This document shows, one piece after another, positions 7,640 through 62,854 of a stretch of DNA of 64,000 bases. The notes under the pieces are model-generated. The model saw only the letters and a program-made list of their open reading frames with translations. It had not been told where the DNA came from and made no database searches. A program made the position numbers and the translations under genes. The DNA lies in assembly GCA_013204395.1 (NCBI GenBank), contig JABMNZ010000025.1, positions 9,007-73,006 on the forward strand, in the 5' to 3' direction. Numbering within the stretch: the stretch's first letter is position 1; each line of letters starts with the position of its first letter. This DNA is from Parcubacteria group bacterium. Lineage in GTDB: Bacteria; Patescibacteriota; Patescibacteriia; UBA9934; GWF2-40-263.

Positions 7640-7652
7640 GAAGACCGATACA

Positions 7653-36645: not shown

Positions 36646-36664
36646 AAAAGGAAAGCGAGAAAAG

Positions 36665-45194: not shown

Positions 45195-46181
45195 ATGAAA
45201 GAAAAACATCTACGAATAATGCTCGTTATAGCTCTCATTGGTGCGGTGGGAGTGTTTACCTTCGCGTCATTTTGGATGAACAACAACCCCGATATAGAGC
45301 CTAATTTTGGCGTTACATACTCGTGGCTGTACGCAGAACAGCTTGGATTAGATTATAAAGAAACCTACAAGGCGCTCGTGCATGAAATGGGAGTGAAATC
45401 TATTAGATTACCAATCTATTGGTCTGATATCGAGTCTGCTGAAGGGGAGTATGACTGGAAAAAGCCAGATTGGTTGATTGATATTGCTGAGGATAATGAT
45501 TTGAAAATAACGATGGTTGTCGGGGCAAAGGTTCCAAGGTGGCCTGAATGCTTTGTGCCTGATTGGGTGGAAAAGTTGAATACAACTTATCAGCAACAAG
45601 CTACACTTTCGTTTATTGAAGAAACAGTGAATCGGTATAAAAATTCCTCGGCTATTGTTCGTTGGCAAGTAGAGAACGAACCGTTTTTTCCATTCGGAGA
45701 ATGTCCTAAAGTGGATGTGCCTCAGATTACTGAGCGAGTTGATTTGGTGCGCCGTCTTGACGATCGACCTATCCAAATGACGGTGAGTGGTGAATTAGGA
45801 TCCTGGATAGATTCAGCAGAGGCTGCTGACATACTTGGGATCTCCATGTACAGACAGACTTGGAATGATCTCTTTGGATATTTTGTTTATCCACTAAGTC
45901 CGGAGTATTATTATTTTCGAGCAAAGCTGGTGGACGGTCATGTTCAGCAGGTAATAGTCTCAGAGCTACAGGCAGAGCCTTGGTTTAATGAGCCGATCAA
46001 TACTCGGTCAATTGCCGATTGGTATGATGCGTTCACCGTTGAAATGTTCCAAGAAAATATTAGCTTTGCCCGTGAGGCTGGTTTGTCTGAAGTCTATTTG
46101 TGGGGAGCTGAGTGGTGGTATGCCCTTAGGCAAGCCGGAGAAGATCGTTTGTGGAATGAAGCTCAATCAATTTTTGAATAA
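45195..46181 (+). CDS. glycoside hydrolase, clan GH-A TIM-barrel (GH5/GH113-like)
   Basis: Acid/base motif WQVENEP and candidate nucleophile VSELQAEPW. N-terminal signal anchor. Confidence 0.5.
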   Translation: MKEKHLRIMLVIALIGAVGVFTFASFWMNNNPDIEPNFGVTYSWLYAEQLGLDYKETYKALVHEMGVKSIRLPIYWSDIESAEGEYDWKKPDWLIDIAEDNDLKITMVVGAKVPRWPECFVPDWVEKLNTTYQQQATLSFIEETVNRYKNSSAIVRWQVENEPFFPFGECPKVDVPQITERVDLVRRLDDRPIQMTVSGELGSWIDSAEAADILGISMYRQTWNDLFGYFVYPLSPEYYYFRAKLVDGHVQQVIVSELQAEPWFNEPINTRSIADWYDAFTVEMFQENISFAREAGLSEVYLWGAEWWYALRQAGEDRLWNEAQSIFE

Positions 46182-46184
46182 CAT

Positions 46185-47600: not shown

Positions 47601-47602
47601 TT

Positions 47603-48145
47603 ATGATAACGATTTACCTCTACAGCTTATTTTTCCTGATGATTGTATTGATGGGAATCATTGGGATGGTGGCCTATTTTTTGTTTAACGGAATTGTCAG
47701 TGTTCCATGGGTTCGCACGCCAACAAGACATACGAGTGAGATGTTGACTCTTGCAAAGTTGAAGCCGGGAGAAAGAGTGATTGACTTCGGGGCAGGTGAT
47801 GGCACCATAATTATTCAAGCGGTGAAAGAGTTTGGGGCCATTGGGTATGGCATTGAAAGGTTGTCTTTACTTGTGTGGTGGTCTAGGTGGCTTGCAAAAC
47901 TTAATGGAGTTTCAGATCGAACCACATTTGTAAAAGGGGATATGTTCGCCAAGACACCTCCTCCAGCTGACGTGATTACCAGTTACCTGTTTAGTGAAAT
48001 AAATAGCAAGCTCGAGCCAGTATTAATCAAACATTATCCAAGTGGAACAAGAGTGGTTGCAAGGGTTTTTAGTTTTCCTGGTCTTAAACACATTAGGTCT
48101 CAGGTCATTGATTCAGACACGATTCACTTGTATGAGATCCCATAA
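47603..48145 (+). CDS. class I SAM-dependent methyltransferase
   Basis: Motif I VIDFGAGDGTIIIQAV. Confidence 0.6.
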   Translation: MITIYLYSLFFLMIVLMGIIGMVAYFLFNGIVSVPWVRTPTRHTSEMLTLAKLKPGERVIDFGAGDGTIIIQAVKEFGAIGYGIERLSLLVWWSRWLAKLNGVSDRTTFVKGDMFAKTPPPADVITSYLFSEINSKLEPVLIKHYPSGTRVVARVFSFPGLKHIRSQVIDSDTIHLYEIP

Positions 48146-48171
48146 TAAGATGTGCTATAATCGGTCACGTT

Positions 48172-48738
48172 ATGCCAAATAAAGAAGTTGTTTTAGACAT
48201 AGAAACACAAACCGCTGCCGGCCCTGATTTTAAGCAGATGAAGATATCTGTTATAGGGGTCTATTTTTATGAGACGGATTCATACGAATGTTATGAAGAG
48301 AAAGACTTCGCTCGCTTGTGGCCACTTCTTGAGCATGCTGATCGAGTAATCGGATACAACTCTCGATACTTCGACATGCCAATCATGAATAATTACTACC
48401 CGGGTGACCTTAATGCATTTCCTCAATTGGATATGTTAGAAGAAATACGCAACTCACTTGGGTTCAGATTGAAGTTGGATGACGTAGCAGCTGCCACGGT
48501 GGGGTATCGCAAAAGTGGGCATGGACTTCAGGCTGTCGACTGGTGGAAAGAGGGGGAGATTCAGAAGATAAAAGATTATTGCCTTCAAGACGTAAAAGTA
48601 ACCAAAGGGGTGTATGAGTATGGTCTAAAATACAATGCTTTGGCCTATGAAGATCGTGTGGGTGGGAGGAAGGCAATCCCAGTTGATTTTGCATTAAAAG
48701 AGGAAGCTCCCGCCATCAACCTAAGTATGGGGTTTTAG
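48172..48738 (+). CDS. DEDDy-type 3'-5' exonuclease (RNase D/DnaQ-like fold)
   Basis: VLDIETQT (Exo I), IGYNSRYFDMPI (Exo II), YCLQDV (Y-x3-D, Exo III). Confidence 0.6.
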   Translation: MPNKEVVLDIETQTAAGPDFKQMKISVIGVYFYETDSYECYEEKDFARLWPLLEHADRVIGYNSRYFDMPIMNNYYPGDLNAFPQLDMLEEIRNSLGFRLKLDDVAAATVGYRKSGHGLQAVDWWKEGEIQKIKDYCLQDVKVTKGVYEYGLKYNALAYEDRVGGRKAIPVDFALKEEAPAINLSMGF

Positions 48739-48784
48739 ACCCAACCTGTGTCTAGTGTCGTGAAAATGTGTGGATAACCACCTC

Positions 48785-48839
48785 TTTGACACACAACATA
48801 TAGTGGCCTATCATACTAACTGACCACAAGATGTAGTGG
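48785..48839 (+). promoter_or_regulatory. nrdJ promoter with two tandem NrdR boxes
   Basis: TTGACA (48785-90), 17 nt, TATCAT (48808-13). Box 1 ACACAACATATAGTGG (48791-48806) matches the acaCwAtATaTwGtgt consensus at 14/16. Box 2 CCACAAGATGTAGTGG (48824-48839) matches at 12/16. The boxes are 33 bp apart, about three helical turns. Confidence 0.6.
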
Positions 48840-48986
48840 TGGCAGTGGGGAAGAGGATCTTTAGATGGTGCAGACCCTTCCAGGAGAATATATGATCCCA
48901 ACGTTGGATCGTATTTTTATCTGCCAAGTATCAGCCAAACATTTCTTTCAAAAACTCGCCTAATCAACCTAAGTTCCTCGCTTGTT

Positions 48987-51900
48987 ATGCTAGACCAAAC
49001 CAACATCAAGGTTAATGACCAAACCGTTGATACAAAAGCGATATCAGAAACAGTTTGGGATTTTATGACATCTGTAAAAACCGTTCAGAAACGTAGCGGC
49101 GAAGAACAATCTTTCGACCAAAAAAAGTTGATGGATTCAATCCAGCATGCACTGCATGCTGCAGGAATGAAGGATGGACGGTTGGCACAAAAGATTACAG
49201 AGCAAGTGCTTACTCGTCTTACCCGCCAGTTTGATGGTCATACAATTCCATCTATTACAGACGTTCGCGAATTTGTTTACCTCACGTTTATTGATAATAA
49301 CTTGGTGCACGTTGCAAAATCATATAGTTCATTTAGGAGCACAAATCGTGAAGATGACCGTAATGAGAAATATGGGCATGGCATAAGTACTTCACGTTAC
49401 TTTACAAAACAAGGAGTTCATCCTTATGACGAGATCGAGTGGGAAAAGCGAGATGCGGTCATTAATGATTTCAAGGGAAACATAGTTTTTGAACAAAAGG
49501 GTGTAGAGGTTCCAAAGACATGGTCACAGACTGCAACCAACATTGTTGTTTCAAAGTATTTCTTTGGCACAGTTGGAAATGAAAACCGAGAGTATTCAGT
49601 CAGGCAGCTTGTTGGTCGAGTTGCAAAGACTATTTCAAATTGGGGGCGCAAGGATGGTTATTTTCAAACTCAAGAAGACGCACAAGTATTTGATGATGAG
49701 CTACATCACATTTTGGTAAACCAGATGGCAGCGTTCAATTCACCGGTTTGGTTTAATGTAGGTACAACACGTCCACAGCAGTGCTCTGCATGCTTTATCA
49801 ACTCTGTTGAGGATGACATGCGTTCAATTCTGAACCTATGTGTTACCGAGGGCATGCTTTTTAAAGGTGGTTCTGGTGCAGGTTCAAATCTTTCAAGACT
49901 TCGTTCTAGTCATGAGTACCTTGGTGGTTCAAATGGAAAGGCCTCTGGACCAGTGTCTTTCATGAAAGGATTAGATGCTTTTGCTGGTGTGATCAAGTCT
50001 GGTGGAAAGACACGTCGAGCGGCAAAGATGGTTATTCTAGATATTGGACATCCAGACATCGACAAGTTTATTACCTGTAAGGTGGCCGAAGAGGAAAAAG
50101 CATGGGCTCTTATGGATGCTGGGTATGACGGTTCTATTGATGGACCAGCTTATGCATCGATTTATTTCCAAAATGCCAACAACTCTGTTCGTGTAACAGA
50201 TGAATTCATGCAGGCTGTTGAAGATGATGGTGATTGGGAGACAAAAGCTGTAACGACTGGAGAAACAATGCAGACTTGGAAGGCACGTGAGCTCATGGCT
50301 ATGATGGCTGAGGCTGCATGGAAGTGTGGTGACCCAGGAATGCAGTACGACACAACCATTAACAAGTGGCATACCAGTAAAAACACGGACCGAATTTACG
50401 CATCAAACCCATGTAGCGAGTACATGTTCCTAAACGATAGTGCTTGTAATCTTGCTTCACTTAACCTTTTGAAGTTCCGTAAGGAAGTCAATGGTGAATT
50501 GATATTTGATGTAGAGGCCTTTAAGAGGGCTAACGAGATCATTATTACAGCCATGGAGATTCTTATTGGAAACTCTGTGTACCCAACACCTGCCATCGAG
50601 CAGAACTCTCACGACTACCGCCCACTTGGAATCGGCTATGCCAACCTTGGGGCCTTGCTCATGAGTCGTGGTTTAGCTTATGACTCAGATGAGGGACGAA
50701 ACTTGGCTGGTGCCATCACCTCGTTGCAGAGTGGACACTGTTACTATCAAAGTTCAAAGATCGCGGAAAAGATTGGGGCCTTTAATGGTTACGCCAAAAA
50801 TGCAGAGCCTGCCATGGAGGTCATGCGCATGCATCGTGATGCCGCTTACTCAGCGAGCAACGCCGGTGTCCCCGAAGAGCTCATGACAGAATCTCGGAAG
50901 TCTTGGGACAATGTGGTTGAGCACGGAAGCAAGTTTGGTCTTCGGAACGCGCAGATTTCAGTGCTTGCCCCAACGGGAACGATTAGTTTCTTGATGGACT
51001 GTGACACCACAGGTGTTGAACCTGATATTGCGCTAGTAAAGTACAAGTGGCTTGTAGGTGGCGGAATGATGAAGATTGTAAACGGAACCGTTCCTGAGGC
51101 GCTCACACGTCTTGGTTACACAGATGTTCAAAGAAATGAGATTCTTGCCTTCATTGAAGAAACAGACACTATTGAAGGAGCTCCTCATGTGAGACCAGAA
51201 CATTTGTCTGTATTCGATTGCGCATTTAAAGCCGCGAAGGGGACACGAACAATTCAGTATATGGGTCATCTTAAAATGATGGCCGCTGTACAACCGTATA
51301 TTTCTGGTGCCATCTCCAAGACTGTAAACATGCCTCACGAGGCAACCGAGCAGGAGATTGCCGATGTGTATATGGCTGGATGGAAGCTTGGTCTTAAGGC
51401 TATTGCTATCTATCGTGACGGATCTAAGCGTCAGCAGGCGCTTACAACATCTAAGGAATCAGATGCGAAAAAGCAGAACACGGATCGTGATCAGGAGGTT
51501 GAGGACGAGAAAGCACGTGTCATAGAGACTGTGAAGGTCATGAATGATAGGAAACTGCGACGACGACGACTACCAGATGAACGTCGATCCATCACACATA
51601 AGTTTGCCGTTGGAAATCATGAGGGCTATATCACCGTTGGACTTTATGACGACGGAACGCCAGGTGAGCTATTCATGACAATGGCCAAGGAAGGTTCAGT
51701 AATATCAGGTTTAATGGATTCGTTTGCTACGTCGATTTCGATCGGCCTTCAGTACGGGGTGCCACTGGAGGTATTGGTAAACAAGTTCGTCCACATGCGC
51801 TTTGAGCCATCTGGTTACACGAACAACCCACAGATCCGTATTGCCAAGTCCATCACGGACTACATCTTCCGCTGGCTAGCGATCAAATTCCTGCCACGTG

Positions 51901-52184
51901 AGAGTCAGTTGTCAGTAGGGATTAATGTGGTAGATGAGGATGTTGATGAAGCAGCTGTGTCGGGGGGCACAGGGGAGGTGGCAAAAGAAATGGTTGCAGA
52001 CAAAGCTGCTGATCAACCAAATCTTTTCCAGGCTGCTCCTGAACAGAGTGCAACCCGCGCTCACACACAAACCTTTGACAACCAGTCCGACGCACCAGCC
52101 TGCGACACATGCGGCTCCATCATGGTCCGCAACGCTGCCTGCTATAAGTGCTTGAACTGCGGTGCAACAAGCGGTTGTTCATAA
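48987..52184 (+). CDS. nrdJ: class II (adenosylcobalamin-dependent) ribonucleotide reductase with N-terminal ATP-cone
   Basis: 1065 aa. ATP-cone VQKRSGEEQSFDQKKLMDSI. C-terminal Cys cluster CDTCGSIMVRNAACYKCLNCG typical of NrdJ. Confidence 0.85.
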   Translation: MLDQTNIKVNDQTVDTKAISETVWDFMTSVKTVQKRSGEEQSFDQKKLMDSIQHALHAAGMKDGRLAQKITEQVLTRLTRQFDGHTIPSITDVREFVYLTFIDNNLVHVAKSYSSFRSTNREDDRNEKYGHGISTSRYFTKQGVHPYDEIEWEKRDAVINDFKGNIVFEQKGVEVPKTWSQTATNIVVSKYFFGTVGNENREYSVRQLVGRVAKTISNWGRKDGYFQTQEDAQVFDDELHHILVNQMAAFNSPVWFNVGTTRPQQCSACFINSVEDDMRSILNLCVTEGMLFKGGSGAGSNLSRLRSSHEYLGGSNGKASGPVSFMKGLDAFAGVIKSGGKTRRAAKMVILDIGHPDIDKFITCKVAEEEKAWALMDAGYDGSIDGPAYASIYFQNANNSVRVTDEFMQAVEDDGDWETKAVTTGETMQTWKARELMAMMAEAAWKCGDPGMQYDTTINKWHTSKNTDRIYASNPCSEYMFLNDSACNLASLNLLKFRKEVNGELIFDVEAFKRANEIIITAMEILIGNSVYPTPAIEQNSHDYRPLGIGYANLGALLMSRGLAYDSDEGRNLAGAITSLQSGHCYYQSSKIAEKIGAFNGYAKNAEPAMEVMRMHRDAAYSASNAGVPEELMTESRKSWDNVVEHGSKFGLRNAQISVLAPTGTISFLMDCDTTGVEPDIALVKYKWLVGGGMMKIVNGTVPEALTRLGYTDVQRNEILAFIEETDTIEGAPHVRPEHLSVFDCAFKAAKGTRTIQYMGHLKMMAAVQPYISGAISKTVNMPHEATEQEIADVYMAGWKLGLKAIAIYRDGSKRQQALTTSKESDAKKQNTDRDQEVEDEKARVIETVKVMNDRKLRRRRLPDERRSITHKFAVGNHEGYITVGLYDDGTPGELFMTMAKEGSVISGLMDSFATSISIGLQYGVPLEVLVNKFVHMRFEPSGYTNNPQIRIAKSITDYIFRWLAIKFLPRESQLSVGINVVDEDVDEAAVSGGTGEVAKEMVADKAADQPNLFQAAPEQSATRAHTQTFDNQSDAPACDTCGSIMVRNAACYKCLNCGATSGCS

Positions 52185-52245: not shown

Positions 52246-53931
52246 ATGAAAAGATTTTATTTACTCCTACTTCTTACCCTTCTCATTATCCCAGGGGTGA
52301 TCTATGCCTTTAATCAAGATCTGACTGAGCGGCTACATGGGTACATCTTGCTCCAGGTCGATCAGCATGGGGAAGCATGGTATGTGCGGGACACGGATGA
52401 CAAACGCTATTACATGGCCAATGGGGATGCGGCGTACTCAATGATGCGTTTCTTTTCTTTGGGGATTACAGACGCTGACCTGGCAACGATTCCTTCTGTT
52501 TCTGATACCACAGAGATGTTGGCATCTGCGTCGGCATGTGATTATAACTCCCTCGCTAACAGTCTCAAGGGAAAAATATTGCTTCAGGTCGAGCAACATG
52601 GGGAGGCGTGGTACATCTATCCGGATCGATGTCGGATGATTTACATGGAAGACGGAGCTGCGGCTTACACCATCATGCGCTTTTTGGGACTTGGAATTGC
52701 GGATAATGATCTTGCACAAATAGAGATGGGAAAAGTGGATGGCTATACCGAGGTTCAATACGATGATTCGACATCGATAGACCCCAATGAGACGAGTGAG
52801 TCCACGGCCGTATCATGGCCATCAGATATAGGAACGTCACATTTTGGTCGGCTGACAGAATTTGGACGGATTGACTCACAGCTTGAGGGGGGATGGGTGC
52901 GCCCACACTCAGGACCGTTTGTTTGGGATTGGATTGAGGGTACTCAGGGCACCTACCAATGGGATCAGGCCGATGAGGTCGTTGCTAGTCTTCAGGGGGA
53001 TCGTCAGGCCATTCTTGCTACGATCTGGGGATTTGCAAACTGGGATCAGGAGCAATGCCATGACAGCAGCGACGATACAAACAATGGATTCATTCGCACC
53101 ATGGATTGGATGCATGCACCGTGTGATGAGAGTGCTTATCTCGCTTGGTTAAGTGATGTGGTTGAGCGCTATGATGGTGATGGGGTCGATGACATGCCGG
53201 GACTTGAATACCCCGTCAGGCATTGGGAGATTTTTAATGAGCCGTCAATGCAAGATGGCACCGTCTTCTTTCAGGATGATGCTCAGACCTATGCTGAACT
53301 TCTGGCCGTTTCGTATGAAGCGATTTTAGCCGCTGATTCAAATGCCATCGTCCTTCCGGCGGGGCAAGCTGGAATGCATGCAAGTTCAGTAGCTTATTGG
53401 GATAACGTCCTTGGCGAGATTAGTGGCGTATTTGATATCGGAAACATTCATTCAATTTCATCGAGTAATGTTTTTTGGAGCGATGACTATCGAGACTATC
53501 TGGACGATTTTGGGTATGCAGATACCGATTTCTGGGTCACCGAAGCACTTGTTGGCGATTTTTCACAGAATCTTTCAGATGATGACGCGGCACAACTGAC
53601 GTTTACAAGCTATGTCAACGCCTTTGCAAACGGAGCCTCTGTTATATTCAACGTTGGCGCTCACGATCCAACGGGTGGGCCTGGAGAAGCCTCTGAAGAG
53701 ACATTCGAGATGATGGCTGCCTTCATTGGTGCGTTTAGCCGTGTTGAACGCATGGACGATACGACCGTCCTTTTTCAGCTACCTGACGGAACAACTGTTT
53801 ACGCAATATGGGACGGAGCCTCGTTACCAAATGGAGTCACCGGGACAATGAGTGTCTTGGAGTATGACGGTGATAGCTATCAGGCAGAAGCCGATCACGT
53901 CACTAGCACCATTCCATTGTTTGTTTATTAG
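52246..53931 (+). CDS. secreted protein with two tandem ~60-aa N-terminal repeats and a GH-A-like (NEP motif) catalytic domain
   Basis: Signal peptide MKRFYLLLLLTLLIIPGVIYA. Repeats LHGYILLQVDQHGEAWYVRDTDDKRYYMANGDAAYSMMRFFSLGITDADLA and LKGKILLQVEQHGEAWYIYPDRCRMIYMEDGAAAYTIMRFLGLGIADNDLA. HWEIFNEPS motif. Confidence 0.5.
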   Translation: MKRFYLLLLLTLLIIPGVIYAFNQDLTERLHGYILLQVDQHGEAWYVRDTDDKRYYMANGDAAYSMMRFFSLGITDADLATIPSVSDTTEMLASASACDYNSLANSLKGKILLQVEQHGEAWYIYPDRCRMIYMEDGAAAYTIMRFLGLGIADNDLAQIEMGKVDGYTEVQYDDSTSIDPNETSESTAVSWPSDIGTSHFGRLTEFGRIDSQLEGGWVRPHSGPFVWDWIEGTQGTYQWDQADEVVASLQGDRQAILATIWGFANWDQEQCHDSSDDTNNGFIRTMDWMHAPCDESAYLAWLSDVVERYDGDGVDDMPGLEYPVRHWEIFNEPSMQDGTVFFQDDAQTYAELLAVSYEAILAADSNAIVLPAGQAGMHASSVAYWDNVLGEISGVFDIGNIHSISSSNVFWSDDYRDYLDDFGYADTDFWVTEALVGDFSQNLSDDDAAQLTFTSYVNAFANGASVIFNVGAHDPTGGPGEASEETFEMMAAFIGAFSRVERMDDTTVLFQLPDGTTVYAIWDGASLPNGVTGTMSVLEYDGDSYQAEADHVTSTIPLFVY

Positions 53932-54742: not shown

Positions 54743-55750
54743 ATGGAAAAGAAATACGTTGCTAATAAGGCGTTTATTGTGAATCAAGCTGGGAAAGTTC
54801 TTATGCTTCGCGATGCTGGGAAAGGCGATCATGTAAATGCGAAAGGGAAGCTTGGGTTTCCTGGTGGGCGCATGGATCGAGGTGAGACACCTCAAGAGGG
54901 TCTATTGCGCGAATTAAAAGAAGAGATTGGGGTTGAGGAGGGGGCACTCGATATCGGCCCACCGATTCATGTGAGTATCTGGGGTATAGGGGGAGATGTC
55001 CTTGAAAAGCCAATCATTGGAATTCACTATTTGTGTCGACCTCGTGGAGAGCTCACGATCACACTCTCTGACGAGCATGACGAGATTGTCTGGATTGATC
55101 CAAGGCAGTCTCTTCCAGAGGAACAGACAGATCACGACCTTAGAGCTCTTCTAGAGGCGTATAGGGCGCATGAGGGTATTGTTGTGGCGGCAGATGTGGC
55201 GATTAAGGGTCGACAGGGATACGGACTTATTCAATTATTCACAGGCAATGGTAAAGGTAAGACAACGGCTGGTATAGGTGAGGCGATTCGGGCTGTGGGT
55301 GCGGGTAAAAAAGTAGGAATTGTCTTTTTTGATAAGGGTGGTGACGATCATTATTTTGAAAGATTGGTGCTTGAAAAGCTTGATGGTGTTGATTTTGTGG
55401 CTACAGGTAGGGACAGAATTCATCCTTCCACAGGAGCGTTTGACTTTTCAATTCAGGACCTAGATTTGGTAGAGGCGCAGCGTGGCTTGGGGGAAGTCCA
55501 CAGGATGTTCACCGAAGGATACGATCTTGTCATCATGGACGAGATTAACTCAACAACAGACCTTGGTATGATCTCTGTGGAATCTGTTTTGGCAGCACTC
55601 GACAAGAAACCTGAGGGTACTGAGCTCATCATGACTGGCCGAAATGCTCCTCAGGAATTTCTTGATCGTGCGCATCTTGTCAGCGAGATGAAACTTAGGA
55701 AACACTATTTTTATTCAGGCGTGAAAGCACGTGAAGGCCTTGACTACTAA
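54743..55750 (+). CDS. NUDIX hydrolase - corrinoid (cob(I)alamin) adenosyltransferase CobA/CobO/BtuR-type fusion protein
   Basis: N-terminal Nudix box GGRMDRGETPQEGLLRELKEEIGV. C-terminal P-loop LIQLFTGNGKGKTTAGIG and MDEINSTTDLGMI, typical of the CobA family. Confidence 0.7.
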   Translation: MEKKYVANKAFIVNQAGKVLMLRDAGKGDHVNAKGKLGFPGGRMDRGETPQEGLLRELKEEIGVEEGALDIGPPIHVSIWGIGGDVLEKPIIGIHYLCRPRGELTITLSDEHDEIVWIDPRQSLPEEQTDHDLRALLEAYRAHEGIVVAADVAIKGRQGYGLIQLFTGNGKGKTTAGIGEAIRAVGAGKKVGIVFFDKGGDDHYFERLVLEKLDGVDFVATGRDRIHPSTGAFDFSIQDLDLVEAQRGLGEVHRMFTEGYDLVIMDEINSTTDLGMISVESVLAALDKKPEGTELIMTGRNAPQEFLDRAHLVSEMKLRKHYFYSGVKAREGLDY

Positions 55751-55762
55751 TGGTATTCAAAA

Positions 55763-55790
55763 CTCCCCCGCGTAACGGGGGAGTTTTTTG
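55763..55790. terminator. bidirectional terminator between convergent genes
   Basis: CTCCCCCG-CGTAA-CGGGGGAG flanked by A-run/T-run (AAAA...TTTTTTG). Confidence 0.65.
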
Positions 55791-56522
55791 TTACCGATAC
55801 TTTTCAACGAATCTACGCAGGATTTCCATAGGCACGGAGATCTCCTCTTTTTTACACCTTTCTTTTAAAGCCTCCGCTTCTTCAGGTGGGAAGTAGCCTT
55901 CATTTTTGTAGACATCGATTCGATCACAGACCCCTACGTTATCCAGCTCTGGGTGAAACTGAGTTGTGTAAACATTCTTTCCGATTCTGAATATGTTGTA
56001 AGGACATTGTTCAGATGATGCTAGCCACACAGCACCATTGGGTAGTTCCTGGCAGGCTTCTTTATGGCCAGTGAATGCTTGAAATGTGCTTGGCAGCCCC
56101 GTGAGAAGAGGATCGTCTTGGGCTTCAGGCTTTAACTTTATGGTGACACTCCCAGCGGCTTCCCCATACTTTTCCTTTGATACGAGACCTCCATGTTCTC
56201 GTGCAAGAAGGCCAAGTCCGTAGCACGCGCCAAAATAGGGAAAGTCCTTTGCGACAACACGTCTGAGTATTTCAGACAGCCATGCTTCTGCGGCAAGCTG
56301 GCGCTCGGACTTTTTCTCCTGAGCGTCGCTAACATTCCATGGTCCACCACCAACAATGATTCCTGAATAATCTTCAAGATTAATATCAGTAAGCTCGTCA
56401 GAGTCCATACGCATTCGAAATACATCTTCGGCGTTCATGTCGCCGTATTTCAAAATCGCGTCGAACTCGCCTTTAGAGACAAGGTCATTCTTACGTAGCT
56501 GTAAAATCAAGAATGGTTTCAT
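55791..56522 (-). CDS. class I glutamine amidotransferase-like protein
   Basis: Nucleophile context FGACYGLGLL, TTQFHPELD (His/Glu). 243 aa. Confidence 0.7.
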   Translation of the reverse strand: MKPFLILQLRKNDLVSKGEFDAILKYGDMNAEDVFRMRMDSDELTDINLEDYSGIIVGGGPWNVSDAQEKKSERQLAAEAWLSEILRRVVAKDFPYFGACYGLGLLAREHGGLVSKEKYGEAAGSVTIKLKPEAQDDPLLTGLPSTFQAFTGHKEACQELPNGAVWLASSEQCPYNIFRIGKNVYTTQFHPELDNVGVCDRIDVYKNEGYFPPEEAEALKERCKKEEISVPMEILRRFVEKYR

Positions 56523-57395: not shown

Positions 57396-58220
57396 TCAGA
57401 GTTCCGGGTAGCGGTCCTCGATCCGGCGCACTAGTCGTTCGAACTCGGGCAGTCGGTGGTTGTCTGGTCTCCAGGCGATGGAGTCCATCAGGTTGATCTC
57501 CTCTACGATCCTTGCGCCATCTTGCGGAACGCCATCGACGAAGTCGCGACCCATGAGCCATACCGTGTCTGCGATGCGCAGAGCAGACCGGATGTCATGG
57601 GAGATCACAACGATGGTTCGGTGCTCGTCCATGTTGGTCGTTTCGACGAGAAGGTCACACACAGCCGTCTTAGCCAGGGTGTCGAGCCCGGAGAACGGTT
57701 CGTCCATCATGATCAGCTTGTCACCGTTGATGACCTGCTGAGCGATCGCCAGTCTTTGACGTTGGCCACCAGAGAGCTGAATGGGGTACTTGTCGATCTC
57801 TCGGGCGATTCCGAACCGCTCGAGGAGCTCCATGATTCGACTCTTGTAGTCGGTGGCAGAGATCTCGGGATTGTTCCGTGCCGATACCAACATGTTGCCC
57901 ATCACCGTGCGGTGAACGAGCAGCATGTAGTTCTGGTACACCACCCCCACTGATCCTGCGACCACTGGGACAAGCGGTGAGCCAGCCCTCACGATGCCCT
58001 CATTGGGCCTTTCCAGTCCGGCAAGGGCCCTGAACAACGTGGTCTTTCCACAACCCGATGGGCCGAGAATTGCCACGATCTGTCCTTGGGTCATGCCAGG
58101 TCGGATCACGTCATGAACTTGTACGGACAAACCCTTGAGGATGGTTCTGTCTCCGAAGGACTTGGTCACACCAACGGCTTCCAACAGCAGGTCGCCCCTT
58201 GAGTGTTCGTAGTCTCCCAT
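57396..58220 (-). CDS. ABC transporter ATP-binding protein (NitT/TauT nitrate/sulfonate/bicarbonate family)
   Basis: Walker A GPSGCGKTT, signature LSGGQRQR, Walker B LIMMDEPFS. GC-rich. Confidence 0.8.
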   Translation of the reverse strand: MGDYEHSRGDLLLEAVGVTKSFGDRTILKGLSVQVHDVIRPGMTQGQIVAILGPSGCGKTTLFRALAGLERPNEGIVRAGSPLVPVVAGSVGVVYQNYMLLVHRTVMGNMLVSARNNPEISATDYKSRIMELLERFGIAREIDKYPIQLSGGQRQRLAIAQQVINGDKLIMMDEPFSGLDTLAKTAVCDLLVETTNMDEHRTIVVISHDIRSALRIADTVWLMGRDFVDGVPQDGARIVEEINLMDSIAWRPDNHRLPEFERLVRRIEDRYPEL

Positions 58221-58221
58221 C

Positions 58222-58998
58222 TCAGTGTCCTCCTAGTGCGGTGTGCGGAGCGCAGACGCGCTTGGCCAGGCCCAACAGGTAGTCGATGCCGATGCCCATG
58301 ACAAGCACAAGCAGCATGATGGCCGTCTGGACGCCAGGGTCGGTGTACTTCTTGGCGTCGTACATGATGACTCCCAGGCCTCCTGAGCGTGAGATGACCT
58401 CCACACCAGCGAGCATGGCAAAGCCGATGGCGTTGTTCTGCCGCATGGCCTCCAGCGCATCTGCGAAGGTGCCAAAGACGACAATCTCTTTGACGATCTC
58501 CCACTCGCTCATCCTGAGCGTGCGGGCGTAGTCATATTTGCTCTGGGGAATCGCCATGACCACGGCAACCATGGAGGTCGTGAAGAAGACCGTGATGGCG
58601 AAGGTGAGCAGGGAGAGCTTTACACCGTCTCCGCTCACGAACATCTGCCTGGCGATGAACGAAAGTCCAGCGATCGACAGAAAGCGCATCAGGGTGACCC
58701 CCCTGACCAATGGCTGAACAAAGCCGAGGCTCCGTGCGTAGCTCAGGAGCAGGGAGATCACCGTTGCCAGGCCTAGGGCCATGGTGGTCAGCTTCAAGCT
58801 TTCCATGATGTCCAGGTAGAAGCTCTGTTTGCCCATAAGCCCCATGAGGGCGGAGAGCGTGTCAGAGACACCCGGAACGGTTGGGGAGCGCCACAGCTCC
58901 CACGTCAGGATGAAGACGGCGATCCAGATGATGGACCACAGCCAGAAACCAGCGGGAGACAAGGGTTGGTTTGGTGTAAACCATGCCTTGGGGTTCAT
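58222..58998 (-). CDS. ABC transporter permease (binding-protein-dependent inner membrane component)
   Basis: 258 aa, 6 TM. Adjacent to and 1 bp from the ATPase gene. Confidence 0.7.
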   Translation of the reverse strand: MNPKAWFTPNQPLSPAGFWLWSIIWIAVFILTWELWRSPTVPGVSDTLSALMGLMGKQSFYLDIMESLKLTTMALGLATVISLLLSYARSLGFVQPLVRGVTLMRFLSIAGLSFIARQMFVSGDGVKLSLLTFAITVFFTTSMVAVVMAIPQSKYDYARTLRMSEWEIVKEIVVFGTFADALEAMRQNNAIGFAMLAGVEVISRSGGLGVIMYDAKKYTDPGVQTAIMLLVLVMGIGIDYLLGLAKRVCAPHTALGGH

Positions 58999-59146
58999 TG
59001 CGCGCCCTCCTTAGACTGACTACATTTTGTCGTCAGCTTGAAATCATTGACTTGAGCAGCCGGGAAATACCAGCCGCTTAAGAAAATGCCCGACATCCAC
59101 ATCTGCAAGAGATGCTTAGTCGGGCAGCGTTGTCGTGCTCTACGTC

Positions 59147-59803
59147 CTAGAGCGTGATCACCCTCACTTCCACGCGACGGTTGGTCGCGCGACCCTGGGG
59201 AGTCCCGTTGGACTCCAGGGGGTTGTCCTCCCCGTGGGGGTGGACCGTGATCCGGTCCTTGGGGAAGGTCGCCGGGGCGATCTCCTGCAGGTAGACCTTG
59301 ACCGCGAAGGCGCGATCTTCGGACAGGACCAAGTTGGTCTCAGCTTCTCCCTGGCTGTCGGTGTAGCCGTGGATCTCTACCCGTGTGCTCTCGGCCATGA
59401 CCAGCAGGGTTGCCAGCTCGTCCAGGTCGCCGGCGGCGCTGGTGTTGAACTGTGCCGAACCGCTCTTGAAGCTGATCTGCCAGCTCCGCGATCCGATCAC
59501 CTGACCGGGGGCGCTGGAGGCCTTGGCGAAGTCCGGAGCGGCGATGCCACCACCCTCGACGCCTTCCAACTTGGAGGCGGCCAGGAGGTACTCACCGTTG
59601 AACACGTCGTCGAACGCGGGATAGGACGAGATGTCCTCGGGCCAGAGATCGACGGCGAGGTCGCCGTAGTACTCGTAGGAGCGCTTGAAGGGGTTGCCCG
59701 CCGATGGGTCAACTCCGTAGAACTGGAGTGCCTCGTCCATGGTGAAGGCCTGGCTTCCGCCGAGTCTCACGCGAACGGTGCGGGTCTTGTCCCACTCCTC
59801 CAT
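59147..59803 (-). CDS. OmpA/MotB-like C-terminal domain protein, in-frame continuation of upstream ORF across a single TAA
   Basis: VEIHGYTDSQGEAETNLVLSEDRAFAVKVYL ... NRRVEVRV OmpA-like signature. The ATG is 3 nt after the TAA of 59807..60964, in the same frame. Confidence 0.55.
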   Translation of the reverse strand: MEEWDKTRTVRVRLGGSQAFTMDEALQFYGVDPSAGNPFKRSYEYYGDLAVDLWPEDISSYPAFDDVFNGEYLLAASKLEGVEGGGIAAPDFAKASSAPGQVIGSRSWQISFKSGSAQFNTSAAGDLDELATLLVMAESTRVEIHGYTDSQGEAETNLVLSEDRAFAVKVYLQEIAPATFPKDRITVHPHGEDNPLESNGTPQGRATNRRVEVRVITL

Positions 59804-59806
59804 GCC

Positions 59807-60964
59807 TTAGTAGTAGGCGGCCCAGTCCTTCGCGTCCATGACGGCCGTCTGGTAGATGGCGAAGGACGCTTCGCCGCTGTGGGTGAGGGCTTCGCGGCTG
59901 GAGCGGACCTCGAGGTTGCCCTCGAAACCACCTGCCAGCCAGTTCACCACCTCGCCCTTGTGGGCCTGGTTCCACTTGCGGATGCCGAAGATCGCGTTGG
60001 GCATCTGCCCACTGTTCTCTTTGGTGGAGAAGATCTTCGCCAGGCCACCCTTGAGACGGGTGACGTTCACGTCGCCGGGGGTCCATGTGCAGGTGCCTGC
60101 GATGCAAACATTCTGCGTGCGACCGGTGAGCTTGCCACCCTTGACCTCCTTGAGGTCGTCGCACTGGTCCTCGATGTAGGCCTTGTCGCCCTCGTCGAAG
60201 CTGCCGGTGTACAGGAAGTTCAGCGCGTCGGGATCCCAGGTGTTCCCGTTGGGATTCACTGGGATGTTGTTGAGTGCTGCCCAAGTGAGGGCCACGTTGA
60301 TGTCGCCGTCACCCTGCACCCCCGCGAAGCGCTTGCCTCGGCAGAAGTCCGGGTTGTTCACGCACTCGGGTGGACCCATGAAGGTGTCCTCGCCCAGCGA
60401 CCGTCCGAAACCGCCGATGATCTCGGCGCGATACTCCGGTCCCAGCTTGGCGAGCTCACGGTTGAGTCCGTCGACGTACCAGGCCGCCGCATCGCCCATC
60501 ATGGCGGTGTGCGTGTAGCCGGCCGTGCAGTTGTCCGAGTTTGTGCGCTGCATCTGCGTGGCACAGGCGATGAGACCGTCCTTCTGGTCTCCGTACATGT
60601 CCTGGCCTTCGATGCGGAGGTTGACCCCCCACTTCTCCATGATGGAGCCCTGCAAGGTGCGGGGTCCACCGTTGGCGTGGTTCACGCCGGCCATGGAGTT
60701 CCAGGGGATGACGCCCCAGTAGATCTCGGTCGAGGTCATGGCCGCCGGGCTGTTCCCGGGGATGGTCACTCCCTCGCTGCTCGCGCTGACGCGCTGGTTC
60801 TGGAAGCTGTTGTCCAGCTCGACGTTGCCGTCGATGGTCACCGACTCGGTGCTCTCGGGTGCGGCCATGCGGTAGAGGGTGAGTCCACCAGCGAACATTG
60901 CCGCCAGAACAGCCACTACGGCGAACAGTCCACCGACCGCGCCCTTGTTTACGGATGTGCCCAT
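59807..60964 (-). CDS. secreted protein (signal peptide; possible solute-binding-like domain), N-terminal part of a split secreted/OmpA-domain gene
   Basis: Signal anchor GAVGGLFAVVAVLAAMFAGG. 385 aa, Cys-rich. Placed in an operon with ABC permease and ATPase. The TAA at 59807-59809 is followed in-frame by 59147..59803. Confidence 0.5.
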   Translation of the reverse strand: MGTSVNKGAVGGLFAVVAVLAAMFAGGLTLYRMAAPESTESVTIDGNVELDNSFQNQRVSASSEGVTIPGNSPAAMTSTEIYWGVIPWNSMAGVNHANGGPRTLQGSIMEKWGVNLRIEGQDMYGDQKDGLIACATQMQRTNSDNCTAGYTHTAMMGDAAAWYVDGLNRELAKLGPEYRAEIIGGFGRSLGEDTFMGPPECVNNPDFCRGKRFAGVQGDGDINVALTWAALNNIPVNPNGNTWDPDALNFLYTGSFDEGDKAYIEDQCDDLKEVKGGKLTGRTQNVCIAGTCTWTPGDVNVTRLKGGLAKIFSTKENSGQMPNAIFGIRKWNQAHKGEVVNWLAGGFEGNLEVRSSREALTHSGEASFAIYQTAVMDAKDWAAYY

Positions 60965-60994
60965 GTAACTATCTCCTCGAATGCCCAGAACTTG

Positions 60995-62125
60995 CTAGGA
61001 CTTGTTGGTTCTTCTTGCGGCGAGTTCCCTGCGGATTCTCGCCCGGCGATCTTCATCCGATTCCCCGGATGTGGTGGGAGCAGATTCTGGCTCTGCTACG
61101 GAAAGCGCTCTAGCTCTCCTGCCAAGTCTGCTTGTCGCAGACGATGGGTGTTCACTGGGAAGCTCCATGGCTGCCAGTTCACGTGTTGCCCCGCTCCATT
61201 GCCGAAGCACTTGCTGGCTTCCAGCAACGTTTGCGATGTTCACACGAGCCAGAACGTCATGTCCTTCTGCAAGGCGAATCTCGATATCAGCGGCACGCAT
61301 CTCTGCGGCAGCTCGGAGTTCTGCGACGGCTTGTCGGACAGAAAGTTCTTGCTCGGAACGTTCTCCCAGCTCACCAAGGTGGCTGCCTAGTGCATCCTGC
61401 CTCAGGTCCGCGCTGCGGAGCTGTGCTTCCTGCAAGGAAAGCTCTTCTTTGATCCGCATGATGTCCAGCTCCAGCTGGTTGCTCATCGTTTGGAGCGAAT
61501 CTCTGAACTGCTTGATGCCGGCGGTGAGTTGGCCGAATTTTGCGGCTGTTTGTTCTTTGAGGCCAGCCTTCTGAATGAGGACTTCAGCTCGACGTCTGTC
61601 ACCAGAGTCATCCAGATCCAGGGCTTCAGCCTTGAAGGCTTCAGCCTCACGGCTGCTCGAGTCTTCTTCTCGCTGACAGTCAGCGATGAATCGATCGATT
61701 CCAACCTGAGCCAGGAGCATGCGCTGGTGCTGCTTTTCAAGCCGGTCGATGACGTCACGTGTCTTTTCAACCGGATCTTCTTGCTCCGCTTCTTCATGTT
61801 CCCAATCATCTTCGGAGACATCCTCGTCTTCGATCAGGAACGTTCGGTAGGCCTTGGTGAACAAGGCTAGATACGAGGTGTAGGCAAGTCCTGCCAGGCC
61901 ACGCGCAGTCCTGTTCATTGCGGCCAAACCTGCCAGCAAGCCTCCACCCAAGATGGCACCCGCTACGATGAGCGGACCAGCAGGGGTGAAGGCAGCAGCG
62001 GCAAGCAAGGGCAGAAGGAGCCAGGCCAGCATTACGAGCACAGGAGCAAGAAGAACGGCACCAGTCATCTTGGCCGCCTTCAACTCCTTGGGAGTCATCC
62101 GTAGGCGGTCGATGAGGTCGTTCAT
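60995..62125 (-). CDS. membrane-anchored coiled-coil protein
   Basis: Two N-terminal TM helices, then about 250 aa of Glu/Arg/Ala-rich heptad-like sequence. Confidence 0.5.
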   Translation of the reverse strand: MNDLIDRLRMTPKELKAAKMTGAVLLAPVLVMLAWLLLPLLAAAAFTPAGPLIVAGAILGGGLLAGLAAMNRTARGLAGLAYTSYLALFTKAYRTFLIEDEDVSEDDWEHEEAEQEDPVEKTRDVIDRLEKQHQRMLLAQVGIDRFIADCQREEDSSSREAEAFKAEALDLDDSGDRRRAEVLIQKAGLKEQTAAKFGQLTAGIKQFRDSLQTMSNQLELDIMRIKEELSLQEAQLRSADLRQDALGSHLGELGERSEQELSVRQAVAELRAAAEMRAADIEIRLAEGHDVLARVNIANVAGSQQVLRQWSGATRELAAMELPSEHPSSATSRLGRRARALSVAEPESAPTTSGESDEDRRARIRRELAARRTNKS

Positions 62126-62140
62126 TGGTACTTACTCCTC

Positions 62141-62854
62141 TTAGGGGTTGTTGCCCGGGGGCTCCTCGGGGGTGGCATCGGGGTGCTGACCACGGACGAA
62201 GGCATCGGCCGCCATGAGTCCAGCATCGCGCTGTGCGATGTGGGCCATGGAGGCTTCCACCGCTTGTCCGATGGCGGCGCGCCGCGACTGAGCCTCGGCT
62301 TCTTCGATTTGGGCTTCACGGCGCAGCTGAGCGATCTCCATCTCCATCACCTGGGCACGCGCCCGCTTGTCGAGAACACTCGCTTCCAGCTCACCGACCT
62401 GCTCCTCGATGGCGCCGTCACGTCCCGCTTCGACTTCTTGACGGATGTCGGCGCAGGCTTGCCTGGCTTCGGCGATGTCCCAGAGCACATGTCCGGGCGT
62501 GAATCCTTGAGTGGTCTGCATGGCACCGGCCACGATCATGGCACGTTGGCCAGAGTCGGGCAGGCCCGGAGCAAACTGAGCATCGAGTTGACGCCACAGC
62601 GAGAATGCCGGAGCTGCTGCTGCAGCGATCTCGTCGTCGACGAGCCTGATGATCTCTTCGGGATCCATCTGCACGATCTCCGCACCCAAGGGGGCAGGGG
62701 TCGTGACTGGCGGCATGGTCGGCGGGGCCAACTCGGCTTCGAGCTGATTCATGGCCGCGGCCAAGTCTTCTGCTGAGAGCTCGGGGGTGTCGCCACCTCC
62801 TTTGGTCTCAACCAACAGTCCGGTTTTCAAACCGAGGGTCTTGAAAAAGCTCAT
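62141..62854 (-). CDS. coiled-coil protein (PspA-like composition, unassigned)
   Basis: 237 aa, N-terminal amphipathic MSFFKTLGLKTGLL, long acidic/Ala-rich helices. Confidence 0.5.
   Translation of the reverse strand: MSFFKTLGLKTGLLVETKGGGDTPELSAEDLAAAMNQLEAELAPPTMPPVTTPAPLGAEIVQMDPEEIIRLVDDEIAAAAAPAFSLWRQLDAQFAPGLPDSGQRAMIVAGAMQTTQGFTPGHVLWDIAEARQACADIRQEVEAGRDGAIEEQVGELEASVLDKRARAQVMEMEIAQLRREAQIEEAEAQSRRAAIGQAVEASMAHIAQRDAGLMAADAFVRGQHPDATPEEPPGNNP

Follow-up and report, generated by a model that had tools for sequence, protein, structure and literature searches.

The window, the whole 64-kb stretch of DNA that was analysed, carries a single gene in which a Nudix hydrolase domain is joined to an adenosyltransferase domain of the CobA type, downstream of nrdJ. 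The features of the locus are (strand after the coordinates; a dot where no strand applies):

48987..52184, +, nrdJ, class II AdoCbl-dependent ribonucleotide reductase (RNR) carrying an ATP-cone and a TSCPD domain; the CobA half presumably serves this enzyme
54743..55750, +, complete Nudix-CobA fusion gene, 335 aa plus stop, corresponding to GenBank NQV89585.1
54743..55177, +, predicted Nudix hydrolase domain, aa 1-145; alpha/beta/alpha fold of the compact MutT/NudI/Ap4A-hydrolase-like kind
54866..54934, +, Nudix box G42-x5-E48-x7-R56-E57-L-x-E60-E61-x-G63-V64, found by reading the sequence itself
55133..55222, +, segment joining the two domains (aa 131-160), made up of the C-terminal Nudix helix LEAYRxHEG followed by IVVAADxxIKGRxGYG as lead-in to CobA
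55223..55747, +, predicted CobA/CobO/BtuR-type ATP:co(I)rrinoid adenosyltransferase domain, aa 161-335
55244..55267, +, P-loop GNGKGKTT (aa 168-175), the counterpart of G36-T43 in Salmonella enterica CobA
55439..55447, +, invariant F233-D234-F235, aligned with F91-T92-W93 of S. enterica CobA
55538..55543, +, invariant, Walker-B-like D266-E267, equivalent to D127-E128 of S. enterica CobA
55764..55790,., GC-rich hairpin flanked by a T-run on either side, a putative bidirectional intrinsic terminator common to the fusion gene and the convergent amidotransferase gene
55791..56522, -, convergent class-I glutamine amidotransferase (NF005743), a syntenic neighbour

The fusion gene is one unbroken frame whose ATG lies five codons past an upstream in-frame stop, and its product is identical not only to the MAG-derived protein NQV89585.1 but also to JGI/IMG and Logan sequences. 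We found the same architecture in more than 100 distinct 90%-identity clusters from Ca. Uhrbacteria/Parcubacteria (48%–95% identity), drawn from NCBI, JGI, ENA and Logan assemblies. Although relatives do carry genuinely split Nudix/CobA pairs, the continuous frame, the clusters from independent projects, the conserved linker and the identical database proteins leave an assembly, frameshift or gene-calling artefact with practically no chance, which disposes of the sequencing error that an earlier note on this DNA had named as a threat to its proposal. The fusion is thus a real protein, predicted to be bifunctional, and in an alignment of 46 family members the catalytic residues of both halves are invariant or near-invariant. 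In the output of an exhaustive search, matches of 335–386 aa with two aligned stretches were scanned for further Nudix-CobA fusions outside the clade, but proved to be tandem CobA-CobA proteins and two tandem Nudix proteins; as all of them were tandem duplicates, the Nudix-CobA fusion forms one tight clade. A literature search found no paper pairing Nudix with CobA, an adenosyltransferase or nrdJ in this sense, in agreement with the earlier view of the fusion as uncharacterised.

The two motifs that the earlier note quoted as signs of a Nudix box and a CobA-type domain in one frame were both found, and Pfam matches both domains. The NUDIX match spans aa 10-130 (E=5e-17, 62.5 bits vs a cut-off of 21.1). 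It includes GGRMDRGETPQEGLLRELKEEIGV (aa 41-64 of the fusion, nt 54863-54934), in which residues G42 to V64 are a perfect match to the superfamily signature GX5EX7REUXEEXGU (PF00293). Within the 46-member alignment, G42, E48, R56, E60 and E61 are invariant, and E57 and G63 are at least 90% conserved. The half has the alpha/beta/alpha sandwich of the Nudix superfamily, and its best matches are the MutT-related protein of Methanosarcina mazei (3GRN), NudI (3OGA/6DT3), NudG (2RRK), BdRppH (3EES), Ap4A hydrolases (5CFI/1KT9) and Escherichia coli MutT, placing the fold in the compact (d)NTP/ApnA/RNA-5'-PPP pyrophosphohydrolase type. It resembles the compact MutT-type NTP/ApnA pyrophosphohydrolases in its size (a Nudix fold of ~130–145 aa), its canonical box and its best structural and sequence matches, but differs from them in its low identity of only 20%–26%, in its own invariant positions (V6, K9, S109, E111, H112 and W117) and in being fused or coupled to CobA. 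We predict that it is a catalytically competent compact pyrophosphohydrolase of the MutT/NudI/Ap4A-hydrolase-like type. All equivalog scores stay below their cut-offs (TIGR00586 MutT, 42.3 vs 97.9; NF007834, NudI, 36.1 vs 156; NF008044, 33.7 vs 148). Neither an NCBIfam equivalog nor any of the specificity motifs considered (the proline at +16 of ADP-ribose pyrophosphatases, SQPWPFPxS of NADH pyrophosphatases, and the NuCoA motif of CoA pyrophosphatases) fits. Since no characterised subfamily accommodates this half, its substrate assignment is a guess.

The C-terminal half is matched by Pfam CobA_CobO_BtuR (PF02572, EC 2.5.1.17) over aa 161-335 and almost the entire profile (positions 3-172 of 172, E=1.6e-47, 162.4 bits vs 25.7). 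Its closest known relative is S. enterica CobA (BtuR/CobO family; PDB 1G5R, 1G64 and 4HUT), with which it shares the RecA-like P-loop fold. The earlier concern that the CobA residues might be missing on alignment is dispelled: the P-loop, which opens GNGKGKTTAGIG (aa 168-179, nt 55244-55279), the arginine R183 (R51 in S. enterica CobA), the D-E pair and the aromatic pair are all present, and G168-T175 and R183 are invariant or 87%–100% conserved in the 46 members. The aromatic pair F91/W93 of the S. enterica enzyme reportedly displaces the lower ligand and so yields four-coordinate cob(II)alamin; the title of PDB entry 4HUT names four- and five-coordinate species. The fusion differs from this enzyme by a six-residue insertion (RDRI[DH]P) ahead of the aromatic pair, by a phenylalanine in place of W93, and by its genomic linkage, which is to nrdJ instead of to cob/pdu/eut genes. 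This half too scores below the NCBIfam equivalog cut-offs (TIGR00708 cobA, 137.2 vs 167.75; NF004637, 149.9 vs 185), so that it appears to be a divergent CPR branch whose exact functional equivalence with cobA is not certified by an equivalog score. Mean identity is 66% in the CobA half vs 49% in the Nudix half, which by this comparison of sequences evolves faster.

Between the halves, the linker LEAYRxHEGIVVAADxxIKGR is conserved in the fusion-family alignment. Free CPR CobA proteins begin at the xxIKGRxGYG motif, and where S. enterica CobA has an N-terminal stretch of ~22 residues, the fusion instead has the conserved linker and the whole Nudix domain. An AF2 model of the fusion reached a pLDDT of 87 and a pTM of 0.66, with lower pLDDT (64–85) in the inter-domain segment and no confident inter-domain packing.

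The nrdJ gene matches NF005122 with 1449 bits (cut-off 859), and the gap between it and the fusion gene is 2,558 bp, matching the 2.5 kb given earlier. A Pfam sweep of most window ORFs of at least 150 aa revealed no further gene for corrinoid-dependent, biosynthetic or transport functions in the whole stretch and thus left nrdJ as the sole obvious AdoCbl consumer, as the earlier note had supposed. The class II RNR is also the only deoxyribonucleotide route seen near the fusion locus. Neither a cobalamin riboswitch nor any other Rfam family was detected in the window at gathering thresholds, and a sigma-70 scan upstream of the fusion gene gave no convincing promoter on the + strand. Because a gene for a 561-aa protein and an opposite-strand gene lie between nrdJ and the fusion gene, which has its own terminator, the two are not expected to be co-transcribed here. 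On the other side, the amidotransferase gene is syntenic at the Nudix end in two other fusion loci (L003 and L011) and adjoins a free Nudix gene in L008. As it is convergent and lacks a B12 link (PF00117, not of the CobB/CobQ type), we treat it as synteny only, and it probably lies outside the function of the fusion.

The linkage to nrdJ is clearer across Patescibacteria. In a non-exhaustive and phylogenetically non-independent sample, to which a scan of genome contigs contributed at least three fused loci, a CobA gene, fused or free, adjoins class II nrdJ in 15 of 21 Patescibacteria loci, compared to none of 72 CobA loci outside the CPR. This adjacency (L004, L005, L007, L009, L010, L012, L013, L014, L017, L018, L027, L090, L091 and L094) spans fused and unfused CobA and two NrdJ subtypes. 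A search for Nudix-only homologues, which returned at least nine proteins, was decisive for the gene context. The Nudix gene or domain follows nrdJ in the window and in L004, L005, L007, L010, L012, L090, L091 and L094, and in unfused relatives the genes run nrdJ, Nudix, CobA, either 4 bp apart or overlapping by 11 nt. The fusion thus represents one variant of a conserved nrdJ-Nudix-CobA module. Its composition varies, with no nrdJ within 10 kb of four fusion loci (L001, L003, L006 and L011), CobA beside nrdJ without Nudix in six CPR loci, a free Nudix without CobA in L008, and Nudix duplicated in tandem in L090 and L094. The earlier proposal that the adenosyltransferase serves the RNR thus has a stronger basis than was supposed, and adenosylation of a salvaged corrinoid for NrdJ by the CobA half is well supported by homology and gene context.

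In the reading that we prefer, and to which we give about as much belief as doubt, the CobA half supplies NrdJ with AdoCbl and the Nudix half most likely acts on (d)NTPs or adenosine polyphosphates as an RNR accessory; the CobA step is drawn from homology, conserved residues and context, and the Nudix step more weakly so. The CobA domain would bind MgATP through its P-loop and a salvaged cob(II)alamin or cobamide, which the invariant F233/F235 pair would push to the four-coordinate state. One-electron reduction and transfer of a 5'-deoxyadenosyl group from ATP to Co(I) would then yield AdoCbl and triphosphate, and the AdoCbl would go to class II NrdJ in these reduced genomes, at first loading as well as when an abortive turnover calls for re-adenosylation. 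The Nudix domain would most likely release NMP and PPi from a (deoxy)nucleoside triphosphate or from an adenosine polyphosphate of a related kind. As a nucleotide-side accessory, it may trim or sanitise dNTPs, such as the dATP that bears on an NrdJ regulated through an ATP-cone, in the manner proposed for YmaB. YmaB is a Nudix hydrolase encoded in the nrdI-nrdE-nrdF-ymaB operon of Bacillus subtilis; preliminary work reports that it acts as a dNTP pyrophosphohydrolase, and it has been proposed to take part in dATP/dAMP-based RNR control (PMC5960316). The two are likened by gene setting, a Nudix gene inside an RNR gene cluster; YmaB differs in being a free-standing protein without an associated adenosyltransferase, in the cluster of a class Ib, B12-independent RNR. 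By this analogy, a YmaB-type dNTPase may be a closer precedent for the Nudix half than the removal of PPPi or PPi, or the control of cofactor supply, suggested earlier. The fusion itself may have been born from tightly coupled neighbouring genes, would ensure 1:1 co-expression, and may have been re-split or lost in some lineages.

The strict order of Nudix before CobA, the translational coupling and the repeated fusion are no less compatible with a direct partnership than with a role in the nucleotide pool. The Nudix half may be coupled to the adenosyltransferase reaction itself, hydrolysing the by-product triphosphate or an adenosine polyphosphate, relieving product inhibition and triggering the release of AdoCbl and its hand-over to NrdJ, so that the pair would be a device for cofactor loading and repair; we consider this possible but distinctly less probable. 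In its favour, the Nudix gene is always immediately 5' of CobA, coupled or fused, the fusion is kept where nrdJ is not nearby, and the pairing was not seen outside the CPR. S. enterica CobA reportedly lets PPPi go without cleaving it, and PPPi reportedly inhibits the enzyme strongly. In the human PduO-type adenosyltransferase (ATR), PPPi is retained in the product complex, where it makes AdoCbl binding 5-fold tighter and the Co-C bond weaker (PMC8633584), and the removal of PPPi could thus gate AdoCbl release. Other CobA fusions also join client-side chaperones, as in a MeaB-CobA fusion among our search matches (P0172). However, canonical MutT-like Nudix enzymes require a nucleoside moiety, the AF2 model gives no confident packing between the domains, CobA stands beside nrdJ without Nudix in the six CPR loci, the free Nudix of L008 persists without CobA, and the tandem Nudix copies rather resemble substrate diversification.

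Taken further, the pair would be a dedicated cofactor-loading and repair machine for the class II RNR, in which CobA re-adenosylates cob(II)alamin and hydrolysis of the retained triphosphate, or of an adenosine polyphosphate, by the Nudix half drives turnover and sets the moment at which AdoCbl passes to NrdJ. We give this fuller version somewhat less credence again. If true, NrdJ would have the first accessory system described for it, a Nudix-based analogue of the ATR/MeaB pair that attends methylmalonyl-CoA mutase. In the PduO-type ATR/MMAB with MeaB/MMAA, an adenosyltransferase is likewise tied, by its genetics or physically, to a specific AdoCbl client and a nucleotide-hydrolysing partner, but that partner is a G protein instead of a Nudix hydrolase, and the client here would be NrdJ.

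Less probable than either, and in our view unlikely, is that the Nudix half is an NAD-related pyrophosphatase (acting on ADP-ribose, NADH or NAD) that partners a NadM-type NMN adenylyltransferase and was fused to CobA by accident of gene order. The NadM-Nudix proteins of Synechocystis (slr0787) and Francisella (PDB 2QJO and 2QJT) set a precedent, in that their Nudix domain is joined to an enzyme that uses ATP for adenylyl or adenosyl transfer. Some relatives have a NadM-like gene ahead of the fusion (45 bp upstream in L003, NF002243, 124 bits vs a cut-off of 127; the second gene upstream in L001), one is also nearby in L011, and the Nudix half weakly matches NadM-Nudix models and 2qjo/2qjt. 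Yet the partner domain and the domain order differ, Pfam finds no CTP_transf_like domain in the fusion, and NF003791 scores 27 bits vs 409. ADP-ribose pyrophosphatases have a proline 16 residues past the Nudix box; residue 80 of the fusion is a tryptophan. It is more improbable still that one half is a non-catalytic relic, either a Nudix fold kept for nucleotide binding, regulation or dimerisation or a CobA-like P-loop domain with a different role: the sub-threshold equivalog scores of both halves and the faster evolution of the Nudix half would fit, but the metal-binding and catalytic residues of the Nudix box are conserved, including the REx2EE glutamates normally lost from degenerate Nudix domains, as are the P-loop, D-E and F-D-F of CobA.

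Proteins of this family, including NQV89585.1, are currently named for the CobA half only ('cob(I)yrinic acid a,c-diamide adenosyltransferase'), an annotation that conceals the predicted second active site and implies that B12 is made de novo, although no other B12-pathway gene was found in the window. To our knowledge, the acquisition and maintenance of AdoCbl by NrdJ are essentially unstudied, and we know of no dedicated adenosyltransferase, chaperone or reactivase for this enzyme. The finding raises the questions of whether a CobA-type enzyme can be dedicated to NrdJ, what a Nudix hydrolase contributes to RNR function, which applies equally to YmaB of Bacillus, and whether triphosphate removal may be part of B12 cofactor delivery. 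The fusion or coupling of Nudix and CobA beside nrdJ suggests an uncharacterised three-part DNA-precursor module, the fused form of which, being handy for expression, would offer a test system in ultra-small, cofactor-scavenging bacteria.

The earlier note had described a Nudix box and a corrinoid adenosyltransferase joined in one gene about 2.5 kb downstream of nrdJ, the gene for a class II AdoCbl-dependent ribonucleotide reductase (RNR). A single ORF does carry both motifs and both Pfam domains, and the distance measured is 2,558 bp.

Genes and domains of the fusion region
54743..55750 (+), Nudix-CobA fusion ORF, 335 aa, uninterrupted
aa 10-130 of the fusion protein, NUDIX domain (Pfam, E=5e-17)
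aa 161-335 of the fusion protein, CobA_CobO_BtuR domain (Pfam, whole profile covered, E=1.6e-47)
48987..52184 (+), nrdJ, 2,558 bp upstream of the fusion gene, same strand
55764-55790, strong bidirectional terminator common to the fusion gene end and the convergent class-I glutamine amidotransferase (GATase) gene

The first start codon is an ATG five codons past an upstream in-frame stop, and the protein contains the Nudix motif GGRMDRGETPQEGLLRELKEEIGV (aa 41-64) and the P-loop motif GNGKGKTTAGIG (aa 168-179). The C-terminal half belongs to the CobA family at the Pfam, motif, and fold levels and the N-terminal half to the Nudix family at the superfamily level only, with neither reaching NCBIfam equivalog thresholds. 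An AlphaFold2 model built on an alignment of 46 diverse family members (mean pLDDT 87.3, pTM 0.66) indicates two confident domains whose relative orientation is not fixed.

Of the 943 relatives that a search of 5.8 billion proteins yielded, the top 120 are, with few exceptions, of equal length, cover the full query, and contain both Pfam domains; they share 48-95% identity, and most bear the label Candidatus Uhrbacteria or Patescibacteria. Their source assemblies are from NCBI, JGI, ENA, and Logan. Across the 46 aligned members, conservation is complete or at least 90% at the Nudix box positions G41, G42, E48, R56, E57, E60, E61, and G63, the inter-domain linker LEAYRxHEGIVVAADxxIKGRxGYG, and, in the CobA half, the P-loop G168-T175, R183, F233-D234-F235, D266-E267, T298-G299-R300, and the C-terminal KHYFYSGVKAREGLDY motif. 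Mapped onto the S. enterica CobA (SeCobA) structures 1G5R/4HUT, the P-loop corresponds to G36-T43, R183 to R51, F233/F235 to F91/W93, and D266-E267 to D127-E128. Since the CobA residues are present and the architecture recurs in independent assemblies, neither missing residues nor a frameshift, the two weaknesses considered in the earlier note, undermines the fusion. An artefact is unlikely given this recurrence, as is a relic domain in either half, the residues being invariant across the family. Mean identity to the window protein is 49% for the Nudix half vs. 66% for the CobA half, and the former evolves faster while keeping its catalytic residues.

Both halves are well-known superfamilies, and fusion sequences are already public under names that disregard the Nudix half. 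One of them, GenBank NQV89585.1, is identical to the window protein; its source is a MAG labelled "Parcubacteria group bacterium", and its sole annotation is cob(I)yrinic acid a,c-diamide adenosyltransferase. Our literature search found no paper describing the Nudix-CobA combination or its three-gene module with nrdJ, in agreement with the earlier note's impression that the fusion had not been characterised. An exhaustive HMMER search over 1.84 billion representatives clustered at 50% identity recovered only two that are full-length fusions (P0011 and P0102); the remaining 335-386 aa two-stretch matches scanned are tandem CobA-CobA proteins, besides two tandem-Nudix proteins, so the fusion forms one tight clade. 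The scan also recovered MeaB-CobA, CbiX-CobA, and pyruvate-kinase-barrel-CobA fusions. The last type (P0128/P0279, 558 aa) occurs on three contigs (ENA contigs up to 21 kb) and joins a PF00224 barrel, without the pyruvate kinase C-terminal domain, to a CobA domain 56% identical to the window CobA half and close to Uhrbacteria CobA; the barrel is another nucleotide-handling N-terminal partner of CobA like that of the Patescibacteria (CPR).

In the window, nrdJ by its sequence unambiguously encodes a class II RNR (ATP-cone and TSCPD domains; NF005122, 1449 bits vs. cut-off 859). This nrdJ and the fusion gene do not share a transcript; between them lie genes for a 561-aa signal-peptide protein and, on the opposite strand, a 186-aa membrane protein. 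A Pfam sweep of most window ORFs of at least 150 aa turned up neither a second corrinoid-dependent enzyme nor any further gene for corrinoid transport or B12 biosynthesis, leaving NrdJ the only visible AdoCbl client, as the earlier note had it, and no Rfam family, cobalamin riboswitches included, matched at gathering thresholds throughout the 64 kb.

The 561-aa protein (52246-53931, +) is predicted to be secreted, has internal repeats (HGEAWY...Y.M..G.AAY..MRF..LGI.D.DL), and lacks Pfam or NCBIfam matches; a 35%-identical homologue directly abuts the fusion gene in locus L006 (8877-9998). A block ending with nrdJ is kept in the window (45195-52184), L004 (535-8516), and L007 (708-9953), in the order GH-like protein, Pyr_redox_2 flavoprotein, small methyltransferase, RNase_H_2/PolB-exo-like exonuclease, nrdJ. 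Its flavoprotein, a lipoamide-DH/MerA-like disulfide reductase under equivalog cut-offs, might supply reducing power for RNR or for the reduction of cob(II)alamin. Elsewhere, the window holds a free Nudix gene distantly related to the fused one (36554-37105, +; 183 aa, PF00293 E=1e-21), two paralogous subtilase + FG-GAP proteins in tandem (7494-9722, 9664-11802), large ORFs without family match (e.g. 2267-5998, 1243 aa; 20533-22674, 713 aa), and an island at 57400-62850 (about 0.60 GC vs. about 0.46 in the remaining window), which may have been horizontally acquired and whose opposite strand carries long overlapping ORFs.

ORFs of the GC island
57396-58220 (-), ABC-transporter ATPase
58222-58998 (-), 258-aa permease-like ORF
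59807-60964, 60995-62125, and 62141-62854 (-), three Pfam-less ORFs

We surveyed 94 loci with the window proteins.

Position of nrdJ relative to fused genes (upstream, same strand) and free CobA genes
Window, fused, gap 2.5 kb
L004, fused, gap 1.5 kb
L005, fused, gap 6.2 kb
L007, fused, gap 47 bp
L010, fused, gap 150 bp
L012, fused, gap 1.8 kb
L090, fused, gap about 1 kb
L009, free CobA, 63 bp from nrdJ
L014, free CobA, 3 bp from nrdJ
L027, free CobA, adjoining nrdJ in divergent orientation

No nrdJ lies within 10 kb of the fused gene in L001, L003, L006, and L011. Free-standing CPR CobA genes adjoin nrdJ in L009, L013, L014, L017, L018, and L027. In L009, the ORF upstream of CobA ends in CGSIMVRNAACYKCLNCGATSGCS before its stop, a tail identical to that of the window NrdJ, and the four neighbours tested (L014, L017, L018, L027) exceed the NrdJ_Z equivalog cut-off. 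These four represent two NrdJ subtypes (PRK06556-like and PRK08665-like), which argues for functional linkage of CobA and nrdJ and not merely inherited synteny. CobA stands beside nrdJ in 15/21 CPR loci vs. 0/72 non-CPR loci from the same search, whose flanks contain no RNR (Fisher p=7e-13, indicative only, as the loci are phylogenetically non-independent and the sample non-exhaustive); the proposed tie to the AdoCbl-dependent RNR is thereby strengthened. The L012 contig (CAZMTL010000001.1), labelled "uncultured Gammaproteobacteria", carries a complete fusion and is probably a mis-binned or mislabelled patescibacterial MAG contig.

Unfused pairs also occur. In L091 (Patescibacteria), nrdJ is followed by two small genes, a Nudix gene (151 aa), and, after 4 bp, CobA (200 aa). 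L092 and L093, which come from two independent assemblies, share an 11-nt overlap between a Nudix gene (143 aa) and a CobA gene (192 aa), the junction ATGTCCGCTGA being identical in both, and an ITPase/XTPase-type NTPase gene lies upstream; the cluster to which this free Nudix belongs counts six members, spread over several contigs. Tandem Nudix paralogs follow nrdJ in L090 (3730-5158) and L094 (3250-3847), the first free (144-145 aa) and the second, in L090, fused to CobA. L008 has a free Nudix (58% identical) adjoining the window-type convergent GATase, without CobA. No non-CPR locus showed a Nudix next to CobA when searched with a Nudix profile. In a simple NJ tree without support values, the free Nudix proteins of L008 and L092 nest within the fused clade, a placement suggestive of secondary fission or loss of a domain, and those of L091 and L090 (the first copy) form a sister clade. 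Together with the nrdJ linkage, these pairs define nrdJ–Nudix–CobA as a conserved, evolutionarily plastic module of Patescibacteria, of which the window holds the fused form.

The CobA half keeps every SeCobA hallmark tested and its gene tracks nrdJ, from which we infer, with good support, that it most likely makes AdoCbl for NrdJ. It would convert salvaged cob(II)alamin or cobamide and ATP to AdoCbl and triphosphate, and this AdoCbl would load and re-activate NrdJ. The Nudix half, apparently catalytically intact, is best regarded by analogy as a putative (d)NTP or adenosine-polyphosphate pyrophosphohydrolase that serves the RNR module on its nucleotide side. The window NrdJ bears an ATP-cone, the usual dATP-sensing domain. 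We favour this role because structural neighbours cleave nucleoside polyphosphates, nucleotide-pool enzymes lie nearby (NTPase_I-T in L092, an HD_4 hydrolase in L005), the Nudix is tandemly duplicated in some lineages, and YmaB sets a precedent: this Nudix protein of the B. subtilis nrdI-nrdE-nrdF-ymaB operon has preliminary dNTP pyrophosphohydrolase activity, and a role in regulating RNR through control of dATP/dAMP has been proposed for it (PMC5960316).

Removal of PPPi by the Nudix half, which would relieve product inhibition and release AdoCbl, is a rival reading that makes the earlier note's idea explicit. Such coupling is attractive because the Nudix always directly precedes or is fused to CobA, even with nrdJ distant, and because PPPi in the PduO-type human ATR makes AdoCbl bind more tightly and its Co-C bond weaker (PMC8633584). 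It is nevertheless unlikely, as six CPR loci have CobA beside nrdJ without a Nudix and a free Nudix survives without CobA. In addition, MutT-like Nudix enzymes normally require a nucleoside. A Nudix-assisted device for AdoCbl loading and repair of NrdJ is unlikely. An NAD-related role is improbable: the Nudix half lacks ADPRase markers, and the NadM-like, archaeal-type NMN adenylyltransferase gene just upstream of the fusion (164 aa; NF002243 124 bits vs. cut-off 127), an arrangement recalling known NadM-Nudix fusions, is confined to one subgroup, whose three loci have no nearby nrdJ.

NadM-like genes
L003, 9462-9956
L011, 8062-8556
L001, 8215-8709

The fusion is a tractable single-polypeptide system for studying how the cofactor of class II RNRs is acquired and kept up, and it also lets one ask what RNR-associated Nudix enzymes do.
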